From: Yuukianura sp. NJ FZ-2021
Taxonomy: Eukaryota
Length of the DNA: 64,000 bases
Assembly (NCBI GenBank): GCA_046563655.1
Contig: CM102285.1
Coordinates: forward strand, 3,844,001-3,908,000
Direction of reading: 5' to 3'
Below are positions 1,825 to 43,045 of the stretch, in pieces. The notes under the pieces were generated by a model. The model was not told the DNA's origin. It ran no database searches and was given only the letters and a program-made list of their open reading frames with translations. A program made the position numbers and the translations under genes. How positions within the stretch are numbered: position 1 is the stretch's first letter; each line of letters starts with the position of its first letter.

Positions 1825-3845
1825 ATGCTGGACGCTAGTTTCTTGGAGTTGTACGTTACATATTTTGAATTTTGGTACAGACTTGCGGTTTGTCCATATA
1901 AGCTAAAGATCAATCCACAATCAAAAATTTACGAAGTAACCACCAGCATCACTTGCAAAGTAATCATAAAAACAGCAGCAGTTTTTTGAGAATAGAATTT
2001 AAAAAATCTTGCAAGTTTCTCCTAAATTCTTCCGAAATTGTTCCTTTCAGGTTGTTCATGTTTACTTTCTGGTGGTTTTTTACATGGGCAGTATCGGATG
2101 GTTTCGAGGAATAACCCTCATGGGGACGTGGAAAAAGGAAAAGAGCCAGCTAGACTACTTTGAAAAAGCAACGATAGTGGGAGCCGTATTTGCAAATACA
2201 TGTCTGATGGTAACATTTTGGCGTAAATTGCAGCACTTTGCAAAACTCGTCAACTACAAACCGCCATCACTGTTTGAAACAACAAACGGTTCAGCTTGCA
2301 AGAAAACCGTATGTTGATTTAAACTGAATGTGATCTGTATTCAAAAACTGTATTAGTATTCTGTGTTATTTTAACACAATTTAACGTTATGCTAACATAA
2401 TTTATCTTTATTTATGTTAGCATAACTAAACTTGACTAAAAGATAAACGCATAGTACAAGTAGTGCAGATGTGGGGACGTAAAACTAAGCGTCTGAAACT
2501 TGTCGCTATATGGGCAACTTGATCCAAAACTGTAAACGGTGTAGGAGAAACCGCACCAAATAATGATCAATGATGTTTTTGTTTTTTGGAACTTTAAGAA
2601 CTAACGCTTTTAGTTTTTATAATGTTTGCTACAGTTGCCCATAATTCCTTAAATAAGCAAACAAATTACTTTTTCCAGCGTTTACTTTTATGTGTGACAC
2701 CATTTACTATTAACGAAATGGAAGACTTCGACCAATAATAGTTAAATAACATGCATATGTTTTCTTGGTTTCCCAAATCTACTTCTCTTTTGTCAGGAAA
2801 AACGTAGCATGTTCATTGGTGTGTGTACTATGGTGGTGGTACACTACGCAATATTATTTTTGCGGTTTTTTGAAGCGGCATCTTGGGACTCGTCAACCTA
2901 TTACAAAGAAATGGCAGGTTGGGGATTGAAAAGCCTGTTCCTGGATGAGGTTCACTGTGGACGAAGGTACAACTATATGTTTCAGTTGATTGGATTTGTA
3001 TTTGCATTGCAAGCGGAATTGGCACTGCAATTGAGCAGATTAGCTGTGGAGTCTTTAATTGTCATCACAATTATACACTTGTACCGGCTGGCACACCGTT
3101 TGGAGGTCAAGGCCAAGACCATGAAGCTGTGTGAAGTGAGAGAAATACAAAATTTCCCCTGCTTAAATCTTATTGGTTTATGATGTCAGAAAATTTGTTC
3201 AAACTTGTTTTTTTAACAAATTAGGGAATAAAAGAACTTGAGGAGTTCCGTTGCGTTTTAAATCTATTGAACAGTGCAAATGAAATCATGTTATGCGGAG
3301 TCGTCTTTGGGAACATTCCGGTTCAAATCCAATGCATTCCTGAAATGCTGCAGCCAAGTGGAGTCGTTATTCTTCTGGACAGCATCACCTTTGCGCTACT
3401 ACCAATCGTCTTGCTGATATGTACGTCCTGGTTCAAATCAAAGGTACACAGAAAATATATAACCAATAACAAAATTGATTATCAAACAAAATTATTTTCA
3501 CAACATTTGTAGTAATGTAAACGATTTTGTATATTAAGGTTTAAAACTATCACATATTCCAGGTAACGTCTGTTTTTCAAGACTGGATCCTCCATTGTCC
3601 AAGAAATGTACCTGAGCAGCATATGTTGGTTCTTTTTTACGGACTATCTCCCGACAACTTTGGTGTCCGAGCATTTGAATTTATTAACTTTAATGCCTCG
3701 TTTGTTGGGACGGTAAGAATATTTGGTAGATGATGGAGCACTATAAACCACTATATTATTTTATGCAATTGAACGTTCATAATAGGTGTGTAGCCTAATC
3801 CTCACGTTCTCTGTTGTCATCATTCAGTTTAAAACACAAAAGTAA
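1825..3845 (+). CDS. Gustatory receptor-like 7TM chemoreceptor, lineage A copy 1 (6 exons)
   Basis: Exons 1825-1959, 2051-2308, 2797-3135, 3225-3443, 3563-3712 and 3786-3845 join in frame through phase-0 GT-AG introns. The protein has multiple hydrophobic segments. The C-terminus ..AFEFINFNASFVGTVCSLILTFSVVIIQFKTQK* resembles the GR TM7 motif TYhhhhhQF. Confidence 0.85.
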
Positions 3846-4658
3846 TCACACGGGACTTGGGTAATGGGTATGCTGAGCATATGAAAATGTAATCCCCGCA
3901 TCAAGCTCCACAAGTTGAAACATTACCATATCCATTTCTTCCACTGGACATCCCGCCGTGGATGAAATGTCGGAAAACTAGATATGCAGCAACACTGCTA
4001 AATTATTATCCACTAGCTTTTACGAAAATAAAAAGTTAATTTAGACATGGCAAGTGGAATTAATTAAAGTGGTTTAGGAAAGACTGCACAGTAGGCGTGA
4101 ACAGTAGTTGAATCGGACTACTTTTGACCTTGATCTGATGGCATGGATGATGAAACCGTAAATTTAAACATGAAATTTTGAAAATCCGTCAGAGAATTTA
4201 CGTGGAAGGGAACTGTGCTGACATGAATTAAAGTAGTAATGGTAATTGAGGAAGTTGTTTGTGTTCCGCTCCAAGGCTGGTCTTAAGCGTACGTTATTAA
4301 AGTTATCAAAAATTTTTGAATTGTATAAATTTGGAATAATTCTCTTCCTTTTTCGATTGTATCGTCTGCAAAAATTTGAGCGTAATTTTTTGTTTATTCC
4401 TTTTTGCTTTGGGTTTTAAATCATAAACTTTGATTTTGTTACGGCCAGTTTGGGTGAGCTTTCCATATGCCGGAAATAAATTCGTTCGACTTAAAAGGAA
4501 AACTACATACCTCAGAACTATATTTTTCCGATCTGCAAAGCATGCATTTTGAATTCTTAGAAAATTTGGCGTTTATAAAAGTGAAGCTTAAGGTCTCAGA
4601 GGAATTACTCGACTGTTTAACCAAAACCAAAACATTTTTACAGGCTATTTTGTCGAAA

Positions 4659-12369: not shown

Positions 12370-14400
12370 CGTTAGTTAATCAATAATAATTAATTGATGC
12401 ATTGACGGTGCCACTCGGCTTTTCATCCTTTTTCAGTCTCCTGTGATTTGTTAGGTGAAGTTTAGTAGCACAATCGAAACAAACTTGGAAAGCAGTACAC
12501 TATGTACGCGTATGTATTGTTTTTTTAACATTTTCTTACTTTATTTTCCTGTCGCACATGTTAGGCAGTTTAATTGTTTTGTGGCCTGCTACTTTTTAGA
12601 AGAAAAATTCATAACTTTCATTCCCAATTTTTTAAATTGGTTGCATGAGTGAAATAACCGTGAAATAACAAAATAAAGTCAAGCTCGTAATTTTTTTAAA
12701 ATTTGTTTTACTTTGCCGATGCCATAAATTCAATAGAAACTCTTATGCTAAACACAATTTGTTCGAAGAAATGATACGGACATGTCTACGGAGAAGAAAA
12801 AATGAAGAAAAGTCTTTCAGTTTAGTTATAATTCAATATAACAAAAAAAGTATTTAGCTGCTAAAAACTTGACCAGAGCCGAACAAAGGATTTCTGATTG
12901 AACTAAACCCCGTTTAGTAGACTTTAGCTAGTTGGACTTAACTTTTACTTTAAACATAGTCTTTACTTTTACTCTAATTGTAAGAGTGTAATTTTCTTAC
13001 AGACAACTTCTACAAATTTTTAAACTTCGTCAAAAATTTCGAAACGCTCAAGTCAGTCGGCTCAATTTGAAGTAAAACGAATAGGATTTTTATGAGTTTA
13101 AAACAAGATTGAGACAGCAGTCATCGTATGCAAATTAATTTGATGTAACTTTCAGTTTTGGAAGAAACGGGTACGAAAATGTATGGGCCATCTATTCTCA
13201 ACAGTCACTTTGTTAAAATGGGCCACAGAAATTGGAACTGCCGTTTATTTGCTGACAATAATCAGTATCTTGGAGCCATTTTCACCAAGTTTCGCATAGA
13301 GAAATTTTCTCCAATTGACTTGCAGAAATTAAACTCAAAGAAATGGGAGAGACTTAAAAATGACCTCTTACCTTTCAACTTTAAGTCAAACGTGTGGAAA
13401 CTTTGGCATAATGCTCTCATTTCGTTTGACATTGCTCAAAGAATGGGTTTGTGTAGTAATGGACGATGTCCTTACTGCAACGAAAGGGTCACGAATTGTA
13501 CTCACATAATCCACTGTAAGTCAACGGATAGTTTATGGATATATGTACAAAAATTAGTAAGCAAAGTAAACTTAAAGCTTTCTTCCTTTGATAAGGTTTT
13601 CGGGACTAACGATAATCTAGCAAATTTTCTAATTTTTTGTTGCTCTAATATATTATATAATAGATTTATTTATAATATAAATTCAGGCAAAACAAATTAC
13701 GATCTGTTAGTTAAATATAAACAGTTTTTGTATCAAACAATTTATATTAACTACATAAGTGCTAGAAGTAAGAATCAAGTGGAAAAATTTGAAAACACAT
13801 GGTGCAAAAATAACTTAATCTCTGTGAATCCAATTTTGAAAATTAGCTTGTAGTTTAAAGTTTTCGACAAATAAATAAATCATTCTCTTCAAAAAAAAAA
13901 AAAACTGCCGTTGAATACATTTCGTCCAAGCACGTAAGAGCTGAAACATGTCCCATTTTACAAAGGAAAGTCAAACAACGTAACATATCTGTCATTCACA
14001 TTTTTAGTAGATACTCTGTTTTTAAGGTCTGTTTTAAATGTTTTGTCTCGGTGACATTCCGTATCCTGTGCTCAATTGGTCTATTGACTTTGAAAACCAA
14101 TAGAAAAAGGACTACGCTTAACATGAACACAATACACTTCCCAAAAGAAGTGTATTTATTCGCAACAAAAGGTATTAATTTCAACTACACTTAAATCTCA
14201 TCACAACACCGTTCTAATTATCTTCGTGTAGATGGGAACTCATTTTAGGGTGCTGGCATAACAATCCTGAGAGCCGTTGAACTTTCATCTATCTTCGGGA
14301 GTCGCTGGAGACGCTTCAACTTCAAAACCAACGCTAAATGATAAAGCTTTCGATTTGTTTCTGGAAAGTCAAAAAACAGCTTTGACACTTGGCGTAACTT
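12370..14400 (+). pseudogene. Decayed, internally deleted duplicate of the receptor tyrosine kinase gene at 18169-22075
   Basis: 12370-12900 matches the RTK upstream region 17083-17720. 13000-13245 matches 21160-21385, and 13903-14400 matches 21378-21480 and 21770-22120, introns included. It carries stops and deletions and is interrupted by a LINE fragment. Confidence 0.85.
13246..13902 (+). mobile_element. 5'-truncated non-LTR retrotransposon (L1/Tx1-like ORF2 C-terminus)
   Basis: It encodes W..L....LP...K..VWKLWHNAL...CPYC....NCTHIIHC......WIYV, a zf-RVT-like CCHC region. The stop is at 13853, followed by AATAAA and poly(A) at 13891-13904. The 10-bp TSD AACTGCCGTT lies at 13236-13245 and 13903-13912. 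Confidence 0.9.
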
Positions 14401-34916: not shown

Positions 34917-36377
34917 ATGGAGCTGCAAGGAACAATGGGTAGCGGCCATTTGGTTCCAGGATATTTCTACAACCAAGTGATTGCAGAAAGTGGCAAAATT
35001 AACTACACTCTAAAGGAAGATTACAACATCAGTGTAACCGGACATGAGCGTTGGGGAAATCCGGATCTCCTCCGAGAAGGAGCTCTGTTTGCCAGGTAAC
35101 TAAAAACAAATTGTCAGATCAAGTAAACATAAAAAACATAGTTTTAGCAACCAGCAAAAGCTACTTTATGTGTCGAACCTGTATGTCTGTCTGTCTCCTT
35201 TCATCTGGTTGAGATCAACAACTTTAATTTACATCATCTAATACTAAGTGACCTCCCTCCGGGTCAAAGGTAAACTTTTGCCTATTATAAATATGGTGCA
35301 CTATGCCTCATCATCATCATAGTGTACTGGTGTGAGCAGGGGTTTGAGATTTTAGCGCCACCTTGCGCTACTTTTGTACATTCCGGTTTACGACAGGCTT
35401 AATTTATGTGAAAACCCATGCAGTTTACTAAATGCCAGTCGATGTTTTTCACCGTGAACAAAACTCTAACCTTATTTTTCAGGAACAATTTTGTGGCGGT
35501 GATACTTTCCGCTGCCATTGGCTTGATGGTCGTCGATGCTCCACGTGGTCGTCAAGCGGAACTGATAAGCGGAAAATTTCACTCCAGGCAGCACTCATTG
35601 CAGAAACTGTCCCGAGGATTGAGCACGCTGAATTCAATTTTGCAAGAGGATCTTCTGGATGAAAAATCGCGTGGGCGGAGATACATGACGGCACTGATAA
35701 ACAGACACAAGGAAATATTAGAAGAGCAGCATAGAGTTCATGCCTTTCCAGTACCACCACCATCACTTTCTGAACACAGTAAAACAGTACTGGCTGCTCT
35801 TCTGGACGACGCCTCCAACATTCCAGTATCCCAAAACGTAACGAAGCTGCTGCTGGACAGAACTCCTGGAGTCACGCAGTTTGAATTGTCTGCAGGACTA
35901 TATTCGTTTTCCTGTTTGCTAACTATTGCACCAAAACGCTTTGGCCTTGACCCCAGTGACACACGAGGCATGGAAGGATTTATGCATCTCTGGGCAGTAG
36001 TAGGCAGTCTCTTTGGAATTCACGATAAATTCAACTGTGCTTTGCATTTAGATGATGCGGAGTCACAGAAAAGAATGTATGAGGACATCATGGTTCCAAT
36101 CATCAAGTATTTCAACAAAGAGTCATTCACAATTCCAGCCACAATAGTCGACGCAACTGTTAACCGATTTGTACCAATAGTTCGTCTTAACTCAATTATG
36201 TACTATTTGGTTAACTCCGTCCTGGGAGTGGACGCTCCCCAATTGAAAACGACGCTAACGCTGTACGACAGAGCAATAGTTTGGATTCTTACTTTCGTTA
36301 CTCAAGAACTTTCGGCGTCATCGCGACTTTGGGTGCTTGGCCATTTGGCTAACGTTGTGATAGGAACTCTGGGCTAG
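34917..36377 (+). CDS. ER-bound oxygenase MpaB / rubber oxygenase catalytic-domain (DUF2236-like) protein, copy 2 (2 exons)
   Basis: Exons are 34917-35095 and 35483-36377. Motifs W.NP.LLREGALFARNNF, RGLST..(31 aa after the R)..H, TQFELS..LYSF and FMHLWAVVGSLFGIHDKFN match the pattern of this haem-oxygenase family. The family call is from motif recognition. Confidence 0.7.
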
Positions 36378-38015: not shown

Positions 38016-38425
38016 CATCGGCATATGGACGTTGAGGTACAAACAGTCTTCGCTAACTGGCGCCAAATTCGTGAGGTACTGGGCGCAAGATGGCGAGTTT
38101 TTAGTTCCATCCCGAATTTCGTCTCCCCAGGAGTCTTCGTCAGGATTCAACGGTTGCGACGCCTAAAAACATTAAGATTTTTGAACTTTTCAAAATATTT
38201 GAGTCTAAACATCAACATTCTAAACAGTTTTTCACTCACCTGGAACCGAGCAGGAGGTTTTGCAAACGGAATGTTCTTGAACGAATAAATGGTTTTTCCA
38301 TTGGTTGCCGTTGTCGTCATTCCTCGAATTTTTCCGAAGTTTGTTGTTACAATCACATCTTCATCAACCGCATCCGCTGCTGAAGCCAGGATTGCTGCAA
38401 CACAAAGTAAGAGCTCAACCTTCAT
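38016..38425 (-). pseudogene. Type-B carboxylesterase, first two exons only (truncated)
   Basis: Exons 38425-38240 and 38162-38016 encode a signal peptide, VTTNFGKIRG, FKNIPFAKPP.RF and CAQ...SEDCLYLNV (carboxylesterase signature). No downstream exons with GGG or GxSxG motifs were found in the window. Confidence 0.8.
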
Positions 38426-38743
38426 TTTTTTTGTAAAGTACTTGACCAACCACTTTCAGCCACACAGTGAATGAGCTTTATGTAGAAAAGTGTGTGGCAA
38501 TTTACGAGCACTTACCTTATCAGGTTATCAGACACTGATCATTTGCAGTTTCTAAAAATCTACACTTAAAACACTTGGTCCAATTACTAAACTTTGAAAA
38601 TTTGTATGCACTAATCTGCGATCCCAAGGTCCAGATTCCAGAACAATAATTGTACTAAAAGGTCAACAAGCACTGCATATAAATTAACCTACTAGTCATT
38701 ATTCATTTTATGTAAAACTAAATATTTGGCGATGCATGAAGCA

Positions 38744-38998
38744 TGTGGCGTTTGGGAAGAATCCCATTCCCACTCGCCACAGGATGAGGATTGCATGGAA
38801 GAGACAGCTGGGATAGCTGCCTTCCAATTGCTCCATCCTTCGAGAGGTTTGTAGAATGTGGCCAGATAGCATAAGGGCAGTGCAGTCTCCCCGGACTGGA
38901 GAAAGACGTGGGTTCGAATCCCACTCGGTCACTTATTTTTTCTACACTCTCGTTCTTTGTCTCTCAAGCTATGTGAGCCCTGAATCTCACAAGCAGCT
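38744..38998 (+). ncRNA. tRNA-like structured element (SINE-like or unknown structured RNA)
   Basis: The cloverleaf at 38858-38932 has an A-box-like TAGCATAAGGG and the B box GGTTCGAATCC, followed by a T-run. It is preceded by two hairpins with complementary loops. Its anticodon loop CCGGACT is non-canonical. Confidence 0.6.
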
Positions 38999-39054
38999 CA
39001 AAAAAAGAAGTTTCATAACTGTGGTTGATTTTCAAGAAATCCTTATGTTGTCTC

Positions 39055-39110
39055 AAGTAGCGAAAGCTACTTTATGTGTCGAACCTGTCCTGCTGTCTGT
39101 CTGTCTGTCA
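39055..39110 (+). repeat. Hairpin + (TGTC)n end of a dispersed DINE-1/HINE-like repeat
   Basis: The palindrome AAGTAGC-GAAA-GCTACTT is followed by tatgtgtcgaacctgt and (tgtc)n. Variants occur at 1093-1108 (reverse), 25976, 33080, 35153, 36640 (reverse) and 37964 (reverse, partial). Confidence 0.7.
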
Positions 39111-39970
39111 TTGGCAATTCTCCTTTGTATAATTTGTAGAAACTACAGTTTTCGACAAGTTGTCTCTGCGGTCTATACATTTGTATTAATAACGCAATGA
39201 AGCACGGAAACACGCGATGGTTAAACAGCCTCAATTCCATGACGGGTATTCCGTGTTTACGAGTTTCTTGGCATTTTGAAAAATTCACTTTTACGCTTAC
39301 TTTTGGTGAAGTTGGAATTTTGAAAAATTCATCTGAAATTCAACTTTTGGATGTATTTGAAAGGCGGAAAATTCGCGTGTACTCTAGCGTCTCGACATGC
39401 TTGTCTCGAGAAAAATTCAGCTGCTGTCCAACTTTTCGTATAAAGGCATGGAAATTCATATTCAGTTCTCAAAACTTCGTAAGTGTTTCGCACTCCTTGG
39501 GAAGTAATAGGGCCGCAATAAGACGATTACGACAAAAGTTTCAGGATTTTCAGAAGATTCAGAGGATTAGTCAGGCCTATTTAATTTTAGCCCTTTTGAG
39601 TTTTTACGAAAAACAAACGAGTGTTTTGCTGGTTTTATCGTTTTAGGACGGTTAGTTTAGTTGTTGTTTTCCGTTTAGAAACGTTTGAAGTTGTCATTCA
39701 GGAACGTCCAGTATTAATTAGTGTGACTACTGCCAGTACCATGTATGACTACGAACGAGATACTAACTAATGGTTGTATTGTGTTTGAGAAAGATTGTAG
39801 AATTGTATGTGCCTTTCTACAATATACGATACGTTGTTTTTACAATTTGGTAAGGTACTTACTAAACTATGTTACAAATCTTTTCACCCTGCCACGTTAT
39901 TTTACTGGTTCCATCCCATGGAGTAAATCATACGAGCGTTTCAGTTTAAGGTGTTCTAATTTATTATTTG

Positions 39971-41040: not shown

Positions 41041-41107
41041 ATTATTTGGTTGTTAATTTTTATAGGGATACACACTGATCGACAGCGTTACGCTTTGACA
41101 TCTGGAC

Positions 41108-43045
41108 ATGGCCGCTTTAACCTGTTGTGATATTTGTCTTGAATGCCACCCCACAGTCAGCTGCCCGCTGATACAAAACGTTCTTCAAATCTCGGATACA
41201 GAACCACTTCCAAGGGCTCTCGCTTCACTCCCATCCGTGCTGCAAGCCCGGAAAGCAGAGATGGAATCTGCCTTCCAAGTGTTCACCTCAGGAATTATTG
41301 AAAAAGGAACTCAATTCGGTCCTCTTGAGGCGCCTGTAGTTTCGAAACGAAGCTCTTCTTCTGAATCAAAATACAGAGTACGGTACACCCCAATGTTTTC
41401 CTTCTTTTTTACTTTGAAGTTTATGAATTTGATTGTTACACTCATGAAGGTGAAAGCGGCGGAGAACGGACCGATTTACTTGGATACCACTTGCTTAAAT
41501 CAGTGCAATTGGATGTGCTTGGTTCGTTGGACTGAGCACGACGAAATGTCAAATTCTATTGTATATCAACTAAGCGGAAAGCTTTACTTTTTGGTCACGA
41601 AGGAAATTGAACCAGGATGTGAATTAGTTGTCACTTACTCCCCAGGTTACAAAACGTTTATCGAGAACGGCGTAGTTCATGCTTATACTATTAGCACACA
41701 GGTGAATCCAGTTTCGCTCATTATTTATTATACCCTGCTACGTGCTACCTAAGTTTTTGGTTTACTTTTAACAGATTGATTGCCCCGCGGATGATAGAAA
41801 TTCAAATTCACTACGATTCGATACGTCTGGTCAAAAACAGGATACTCACCCTGAAATCACCCGGGTTCGAAATGGAACTGCAGGACGACTTGAACAGAAT
41901 GGGAATTTCATTTGCGAAGTTTGTGGAGCTCATTACACAAAGTTCAGCTCTCTCAAGGTGTGACATCTCATTTGCAGGCAGTAATGGCAATAATAAATAA
42001 GCGCTTAAATTCTTTGCTAGACTCACCGCTCGACGCACGGTCCCAGGAGGTACGAATGCCCAACATGCGGGAAACAGTTCCACCGACAAACTCTTTTGTC
42101 TGAGCACCGCTTCGTCCATCTCCCACCACAGGTTGTTACTACATTGCCATTCAAACTCAACTCAAACACTGAAACTGATGTTTACTTTCTTTTGTCAGTT
42201 TGTTTGCCAAGAGTGCGGTAAGACGTTGAAGACGCGGAAGGCACTGGATGTTCATCTTACCATTCACACTGGAATGAAGCAATTCGTATGTGACTTCCAA
42301 GGATGTAACAAGGCGTTTTGTCAGAAGGGCAATTTACTTTCCCACCAGTTGACGCATGTGCCGTTGGAAGAAAAGGATTTCCAATGCCCCTACTGCTCAA
42401 AGCGTTTAGCGTCTAAAGAGTCATTTCACCTTCATGTCAAGTCTCACGAGGAAAAACCGTTTAAGTGCTCACTGTGTGATAAACAATTCGTCACCGATGT
42501 AATTCTTAAGAAGCACCAGCGAGTTGCCCACACGAAGGAACGTTACTCTTGTGCATTTTGTTCTTTGATAGTCAAACAGAAGCATACGTTCCGACGACAC
42601 TTACTCCAGAAACATTCAGAATTCAGTGAAACCTGGCTGTCTGAAGGTAAATCGTCTCATTTCAGGTGTATTATTCTTTGGAATTTATTTACCTATTTTT
42701 AGTAAGAACCTCATTTTACTACGGAATGACTCTTAACGGTTTGCTCATTTGAATTGTTCAGGTCACATAGAAAATTGCTTCCAAGTACATGACGGGATTG
42801 GAACAGGGAAAGCTCCATCTAGTCGGCGGAAAACGATTGTCGTAGAAGTTGTTGGAGAGGATGTACTCGAATTGACGTCGAGCAATCAGAATGTATCGCT
42901 GGATAGGACAGGAGAAGAGCTGCAAATTGAGGACTCTCAGGAAGATCAAGTAATACTTTCCTCTACTGCTGATGAAACTGACAATGAGATTTCATGTTCA
43001 GATTCAGAACTAATCCTTCTCCACTTGAATCAAGATGGTGAGTGA
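41108..43045 (+). CDS. PR/SET-domain C2H2 zinc-finger protein (PRDM-like)
   Basis: It has an N-terminal Cys knuckle (CDICLECHPTVSCP), RALASLP, and PR-domain motifs GTQFGPL, CNWMCLVR and EIEPGCELVVTYS. Seven C2H2 fingers are spread over exons ~41775-41957, 42021-42131 and 42199-42646, followed by an acidic tail at 42762-43045. Confidence 0.88.

Follow-up and report, generated by a model that had tools for sequence, protein, structure and literature searches.

The window, the whole 64-kb stretch that was analysed, is animal DNA with a GC content of about 36%. It contains a block of 248 bp with 50% GC, as compared to 36-39% in the DNA around it. The block begins with TGTG, ends with CACA and comprises in 5' to 3' order hairpin 1, hairpin 2, the 5' arm of an extended stem, a tRNA-like unit, a run of six T residues (T6), the 3' arm of the extended stem and a terminal hairpin (Table 1). 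It is bordered by a short target-site duplication which can be read as 4 bp (AGCA) or as 5 bp (AAGCA, 38739-43 and 38991-95). The T6 run, the exact ends and the duplication are absent from a preliminary description of this DNA, in which 38744-38998 had been presented as a candidate for a novel structured RNA element.

Table 1. Features of the 248-bp block and its borders (positions in the window; LTR, long terminal repeat)
Feature	Position	Strand	Description	Evidence
Probable solo LTR, Helenus-type (TRIMp3)	38744-38991	+	248 bp, TG...CA	depth, empty site, joints, ends, GC
Target-site duplication, left copy	38740-38743	.	AGCA (AAGCA with A38739)	sequence, empty-site joint
Target-site duplication, right copy	38992-38995	.	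AGCA	sequence, empty-site joint
Hairpin 1	38744-38781	+	5' end of the probable LTR, putative U3-like part; TGTGGCG 38744-50 / CGCCACA 38775-81, TGGGAA 38753-58 / TTCCCA 38767-72	MFE, shuffles (z -5.6)
Hairpin 2	38782-38840	+	apical loop GGGAT 38810-14; GGATG 38782-86 / CATCC 38834-38, CAGCT 38805-09 / AGCTG 38815-19	MFE, shuffles (z -2.76)
Extended stem, 5' arm	38841-38856	+	encloses the tRNA-like unit; CGAGAG 38841-46, TGTAGAA 38850-56	MFE
tRNA-like sequence, non-decoding	38860-38931	+		ARAGORN, Rfam
T6 run, Pol III terminator-like	38936-38941	+	starts 3 nt past the end of the ARAGORN call (38933)	
Extended stem, 3' arm	38940-38952	+	TTCTACA 38940-46, CTCTCG 38947-52	MFE
Terminal hairpin	38972-38991	+	3' end of the probable LTR, putative U5-like part, last letters CA; TGTGAG 38972-77 / CTCACA 38986-91	shuffles (z -2.89)

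A PRDM9/7-like gene on the same strand starts about 2.1 kb downstream of the block and comprises a PR/SET ORF (41099-41752) and a C2H2 zinc-finger ORF (42001-42702); a search with the PR/SET exon gave one distant match. The window also carries a sulfotransferase exon, whose best named relatives are termite, cockroach and crab proteins with 38-49% identity. Altogether, 39 ORFs of at least 120 aa are present, 30 of which were scanned against Pfam and nine left out. One stop-to-stop ORF of at least 120 aa (38817-39200, plus strand) overlaps the block and lies outside the scanned ones; the block is taken as non-coding from its size of 248 bp. ORF 13149-13853 (plus strand) yields a zf-RVT match (E = 5.6e-06) just under the Pfam cut-off and is probably the remnant of a non-LTR retroelement.

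The surroundings contain repeats of other kinds. A moderately repeated piece at 39040-39113 ends in (GTCT)n and has a depth of ~4,100-4,400 in X1, one of the public runs introduced below. It has a direct copy at 35153-94 (88% identity) and an inverted partial copy at 36613-47, and probably marks the terminus of a different mobile element, separate from the 248-bp block. The pair 36613-36647/39066-39100, which resembles terminal inverted repeats (TIRs) bounding a larger element with the tRNA-like part inside, was dropped as a candidate, as the empty site described below shows that the insert is 38744-38991. A very abundant repeat occupies 39262-39372 (summed word depth ~336,000 in X1 versus ~183 in the unique flank) and contains a direct repeat of 20 nt (39268-87/39312-31). 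Further downstream, an inverted repeat (40442-40499/40542-40599) has arms of 58 nt that are 84% complementary, lie 42 nt apart and are made of GCCAGTG/CACTGGC-like units. On the left, the flank 38534-38706 exists in X1 in two versions, one identical (depth 192.8), the other differing by 11 mismatches and 18 gap letters at a depth of 255.6, and therefore the flank has either a second haplotype or a paralogue.

Copies, empty site and joints in public contigs

Seven public runs contain part of 38600-39100, and four of them were aligned to 38300-39400 at a likeness of at least 80%. Two of these, X1 and X4, consist of DNA from two labelled organisms; the others, X5 and X6, are RNA libraries from the environment, of which small shares (0.05 and 0.04) were used. 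All four are stored as contigs. X1 contributes 493 aligned contigs and X4 102, with many different loose ends. The summed word depth, which is not to be equated with copy number, changes in sharp steps at 38744 and at about 38991: it amounts to ~12,600 over 38744-80, 2,800-3,900 over 38781-38854, ~40,000 over 38892-38965 and 9,100 over 38966-39002, as compared to ~183 in the unique right flank. Contigs that start exactly at 38744 are found in X1 (122 nt, depth 2,302) and in X4 (143 nt). The block is a high-copy repeat.

Other searches returned no additional copies. BLAST of 38601-39100 against the 64-kb window found no further copy of the element and only an unrelated piece at 35153-35194. A 25-nt stretch of hairpin 1 had no match in a collection of genome contigs and none in a collection of viral contigs. 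A general pattern of anticodon loop plus T arm hit 120 metagenome stretches and eight viral ones; BLAST of the element against these 128 loci found no copy of it and gave 20 alignments, 19 of them confined to 20-25 nt over the T arm and a single one extending over 52 nt at 79% identity.

The site is also found without the block. In X1, a contig of 376 nt at flank level (depth 182.6) joins 38738 to 38991; it consists of 25 letters up to 38738, followed by 38991 to 39341, with one mismatch. The same joint is present in X4 (depth 5.11), together with a second, diverged joint from 38743 to 39000. At the empty-site joint, the five letters AAGCA fit either side and occur as a single copy. The empty-site contigs fix the boundaries of the element independently. 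The copy at 38744-38991 is a discrete insertion of 248 bp that is absent from other individuals, both of the same labelled organism and of a second one, and this insertion happened recently. Because it is lacking in other individuals of the same labelled organism, the family is active or was so until very recently. Since the empty site likewise contains the A7 run at 39000-06, this run is target-site sequence rather than a tail.

The precise TG...CA ends combined with the duplication point to an integrase. A polymorphic, high-copy insertion of 248 bp with a short duplication would also suit a MITE whose transposase generates duplications of 4-5 bp, and the hairpins would then reflect its fold-back nature. 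The ends TGTG and CACA are indeed inverted, and nine of the first 14 terminal positions match. However, only four inverted terminal bases are contiguous, where terminal inverted repeats of ~10 bp or more would be expected, the hairpins are local and do not pair end to end, and the joints treated in the next paragraph are unexpected for such an element. A MITE is therefore considered unlikely.

In three of the four runs, contigs lead from the end of the element (38983/38991) back to its start (38743/38744) with 49, 51 or 60 letters in between. They comprise joints with depths of 37 and 16 in X4 (single-copy level ~5), two contigs in X5 and one in X6. None is listed in X1, the deepest-covered run, whose contigs break at the repeat borders. 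These joints fit the layout LTR-short internal region-LTR, although a tandem array of ~300-bp units would look alike. In the former case they imply a full element of ~550 bp. The contigs from X5 and X6 place the element in RNA libraries, which is no proof of transcription and points to no habitat.

Taken as a unit of such a ~300-bp tandem repeat, satellite- or retrozyme-like, possibly with a circular RNA and dispersed singly, the block would account for the contigs running from its end over ~50 nt to its start, some of which come from two RNA libraries. Yet, an LTR-internal region-LTR arrangement yields the same joints, and the ends and the duplication point elsewhere, as stated above. Furthermore, no self-cleaving ribozyme family is found with Rfam up to E = 10. 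The E-value scan of 38600-39150 gave ten matches, none of them a ribozyme, with the tRNA alone exceeding its gathering score, so that the ribozyme-like RNA considered in the preliminary description is not borne out. Its authors had seen no hammerhead core, and a second check by eye was negative, too. A tandem-repeat unit is regarded as very unlikely. Plant retrozymes have LTRs and 4-bp duplications. As far as retrozymes are described in the sources drawn on here, they resemble the element in being small non-autonomous retroelements with structured repeats, but contain hammerhead ribozymes, whereas here a tRNA-like unit and no ribozyme match is found.

Fold and its variation among copies

All stems named in the preliminary description are present where they had been placed, and the MFE fold reproduces them. 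The 255 nt from 38744 to 38998 have an MFE of -94.1 kcal/mol (z -3.63), and none of 200 dinucleotide shuffles is equally stable. When pieces of the element are folded separately with 300 shuffles each, the three hairpins have the z values listed in Table 1, the extended stem together with the cloverleaf reaches -1.93 and the tRNA-like part alone -1.15. Two flanking control folds of 248 nt have z values of -1.16 and +0.41. The extended stem comprises 13 bp.

The loop of hairpin 1, GAATCCCA, contains ATCCC. The complementarity to the GGGAT loop of hairpin 2, from which a loop-loop pseudoknot had been proposed, does exist: the duplex has -7.5 kcal/mol, and its chance per loop pair is ~0.004 according to a simulation. 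In the MFE fold, the loop of hairpin 2 shrinks to 3 nt. GGGA and TCCC recur two and four times, respectively, within the element, and the loop-loop match is partly a by-product of this repeated motif.

Copies and sister subfamilies differ in ways that bear on the stems. The outer stem of hairpin 2, GGATG/CATCC, is maintained as GGATA/TATCC in a sister subfamily (X4, X5, X6), with a change from G-C to A-T, and the next helix of this hairpin is also kept with other letters; the comparison was made by eye and without statistics from loose ends of single contigs (behind 38779 and before 38857). Two substitutions that occur among copies, C38805>T and A38944>G, retain pairing as G-U. The anticodon stem TCTCC/GGAGA corresponds to CTTC/GAAG in the sister subfamily. 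The extended stem behaves differently: positions 38949 and 38952 in its 3' arm vary among copies without a visible change of the partner, and one sister subfamily (X6, before 38857) has other letters in place of its 5' arm. For these reasons, the extended stem seems to be specific to one subfamily. The conservation of the tRNA-like layout and of the loop CCGGAYT in combination with a different stem fits several co-existing families.

The tRNA-like unit and its Pol III signals

ARAGORN calls a tRNA-Ser(gga) at 38858-38933, the sole tRNA in 64 kb. The Rfam tRNA model matches with 34.2 bits (gathering score 29), and no other family exceeds its threshold in the window. A weak H/ACA snoRNA-like match on the minus strand (25.8 bits, gathering score 35) was taken as chance. 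The unit contains TAGCATAAGGG (38867-77), which resembles an A box, and GGTTCGAATCC (38911-21), a perfect B box. The former agrees with TRGC, but departs from the pattern at the next Y and at the YGG, as it reads TAGCA...GGG, whereas most Helenus LTRs have TRGCY...YGG (Kojima 2024, PMC10886601, in the sections used here).

As the preliminary description had pointed out, the anticodon loop CCGGACT (38891-97) lacks U33 and purine 37; C is found at both positions. In addition, the variable region is short despite the Ser anticodon GGA, and the Rfam alignment reveals one non-standard pair (G1-A71), two more consensus mismatches and one gap in the 3' strand of the acceptor stem. A functional tRNA gene would have a U at 33, a purine at 37, an acceptor stem that pairs and arms that match the anticodon, and this set is not found here. 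Therefore, the unit is tRNA-like and not a decoding tRNA.

Region 38892-38965, i.e. the T arm and 40 nt downstream of it, exceeds the remainder of the block in depth by a factor of about three to ten and is joined to other tRNA-like 5' halves in many contigs. It is common to other families, which fits the published idea of a SINE captured by an LTR.

A tRNA-derived SINE, possibly composite or dimeric and copied by a LINE that recognises the terminal hairpin as tail, could provide the tRNA-like Pol III promoter, the hairpin at the 3' end, the A7 run and the high copy number. Like SINE2 elements, the block combines a tRNA-derived Pol III promoter and many copies with no coding capacity. By contrast, SINEs start with the tRNA head (5') and finish in a LINE-type tail (3'), have duplications of variable length and possess neither terminal repeats nor TG...CA ends. 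Here, 115 nt of the element precede the tRNA-like part, so that the earlier statement that this is no ordinary SINE was right. It is followed by the T6 terminator, the A7 run is part of the empty site and leaves no tail, the TG...CA ends come with a duplication of 4-5 bp, and no 5S, 7SL or snRNA family of Rfam is matched by the domain located upstream of this part. The probability of a SINE is accordingly rated as very low. A Pol III promoter with an immediate terminator is not the build of a SINE but that of the 5S unit in Cassandra LTRs as depicted in the sections of Kojima 2024 (PMC10886601) used here.

The significant fold and the near-complete cloverleaf with its own terminator might alternatively belong to a host gene for a structured non-coding RNA, for instance a tRNA-like module cut by RNase P/Z, as had been suggested before. 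But other individuals show the empty locus at full depth, and very many copies exist. Empty site and copy number together argue against a single conserved host gene, and this explanation is extremely unlikely. If 38744-38991 is a solo LTR, none of its structures needs to be a free-standing functional host RNA.

Relation to Helenus and possible life cycle

Helenus elements are TRIMs whose LTRs harbour a sequence resembling a tRNA, in which A and B boxes are conserved, and enclose both a PBS (primer-binding site) and a PPT (polypurine tract); their total length is 311-1263 bp (Kojima 2024, PMC10886601). According to the parts of this publication used here, their target-site duplications comprise 4 bp in animals and 5 bp in fungi and plants, solo LTRs with flanking duplications are frequent, and tandem arrays occur in one family. 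Several families are found per genome, and the tRNA-like parts are mostly non-functional as tRNAs. In animals, Helenus is probably mobilised by Gypsy elements. Together with Ajax and Cassandra, it has been grouped as TRIMp3 (Kojima 2024, PMC10886601). A full-text literature search yielded no other paper with Helenus as its subject and elsewhere one to three mentions.

Block 38744-38991 is probably the solo LTR of a small non-autonomous LTR retrotransposon of the Helenus/TRIMp3 kind, an assignment based on the published description of features in the sections used here and not on a match to a consensus sequence. Among the options listed in the preliminary description, a mobile-element terminus is essentially right, the structured 248-bp block being a probable solo LTR. 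A structured RNA of a novel class, as proposed there, is not supported, as a kind of element with the same make-up has already been published (Kojima 2024, PMC10886601, as far as described in these sections). The case of a full match to a known SINE or retroelement had also been raised; such a match is found in kind, but not by sequence.

The full element would consist of one LTR, an internal region of ~50 nt with PBS and PPT and a second LTR, ~550 bp in total. In this element, Pol III would start at the tRNA-like promoter of the 5' LTR and stop at the terminator of the 3' LTR, which would require read-through of the T6 run in the 5' LTR. A host tRNA at the PBS would prime reverse transcription, and an autonomous LTR retrotransposon would supply in trans the reverse transcriptase and integrase by which the RNA is copied and inserted. 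If the duplication is read as 4 bp, a Gypsy-type helper is to be expected on that account. Within the window, none of the 30 ORFs scanned against Pfam matches an LTR-retrotransposon domain (Gypsy, Copia, BEL). Recombination between the LTRs would later remove one LTR and the internal part and leave the solo LTR behind. Hairpins 1 and 2 would correspond to a U3-like part, the cloverleaf to the promoter and an R-like part, and the terminal hairpin to the U5-like end recognised by the integrase.

It is conceivable, albeit with a very small probability, that the element uses its own RNA structures in this life cycle. In one version of this model, the self-terminated tRNA-like RNA may prime its own reverse transcription, which needs a complementary site in the internal region of ~50 nt. 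The loop CCGGAYT is kept across subfamilies although the stem changes. For the published Helenus families, the sections used here report that no complementarity for self-priming was found (Kojima 2024, PMC10886601). In another version, the ATCCC and GGGAT loops of the U3 hairpins may pair in a kissing complex and the RNA be dimerised or packaged in the particles of the helper.

By this assignment, a striking structured-RNA candidate would be explained as a type of mobile element that was first described in 2024. The sulfotransferase relatives, none of them close, are weak evidence that the host is an arthropod lacking annotated close relatives and hence probably outside the Helenus host species given in Table 1 of Kojima 2024 (PMC10886601). 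This would probably extend Helenus-type elements to a host lineage beyond those listed there. In general, LTRs of this type inflate tRNA gene predictions and scatter Pol III promoter-terminator units through the genome.

Among the known systems, the plant TRIM Cassandra has an LTR with a small-RNA gene that provides a Pol III promoter and a terminator, is transcribed from the copy in the 5' LTR through to that in the 3' LTR and forms tandem arrays (PMC10886601, sections used here), features which would be shared by the element proposed here. It differs in carrying 5S rRNA and not a tRNA, and it belongs to plants and not to animals. With Helenus, as portrayed in the same sections, the element has in common the short non-coding sequence, the tRNA-like part within the repeat with its A and B boxes for Pol III, the termini TG...CA, the duplication of 4 bp known from the animal families, solo LTRs, many dispersed copies, the non-decoding nature of the tRNA-like part and the presence of several families in one genome; its inferred length of ~550 bp would lie within the published range. 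Differences from that description are the deviating A box, the near-complete cloverleaf, the T6 run directly after it and the enclosing stem of 13 bp. What is noteworthy in comparison is, on the one hand, the recent insertion and, on the other hand, an unusually complete tRNA-like unit that is self-terminated and enclosed by a stem.
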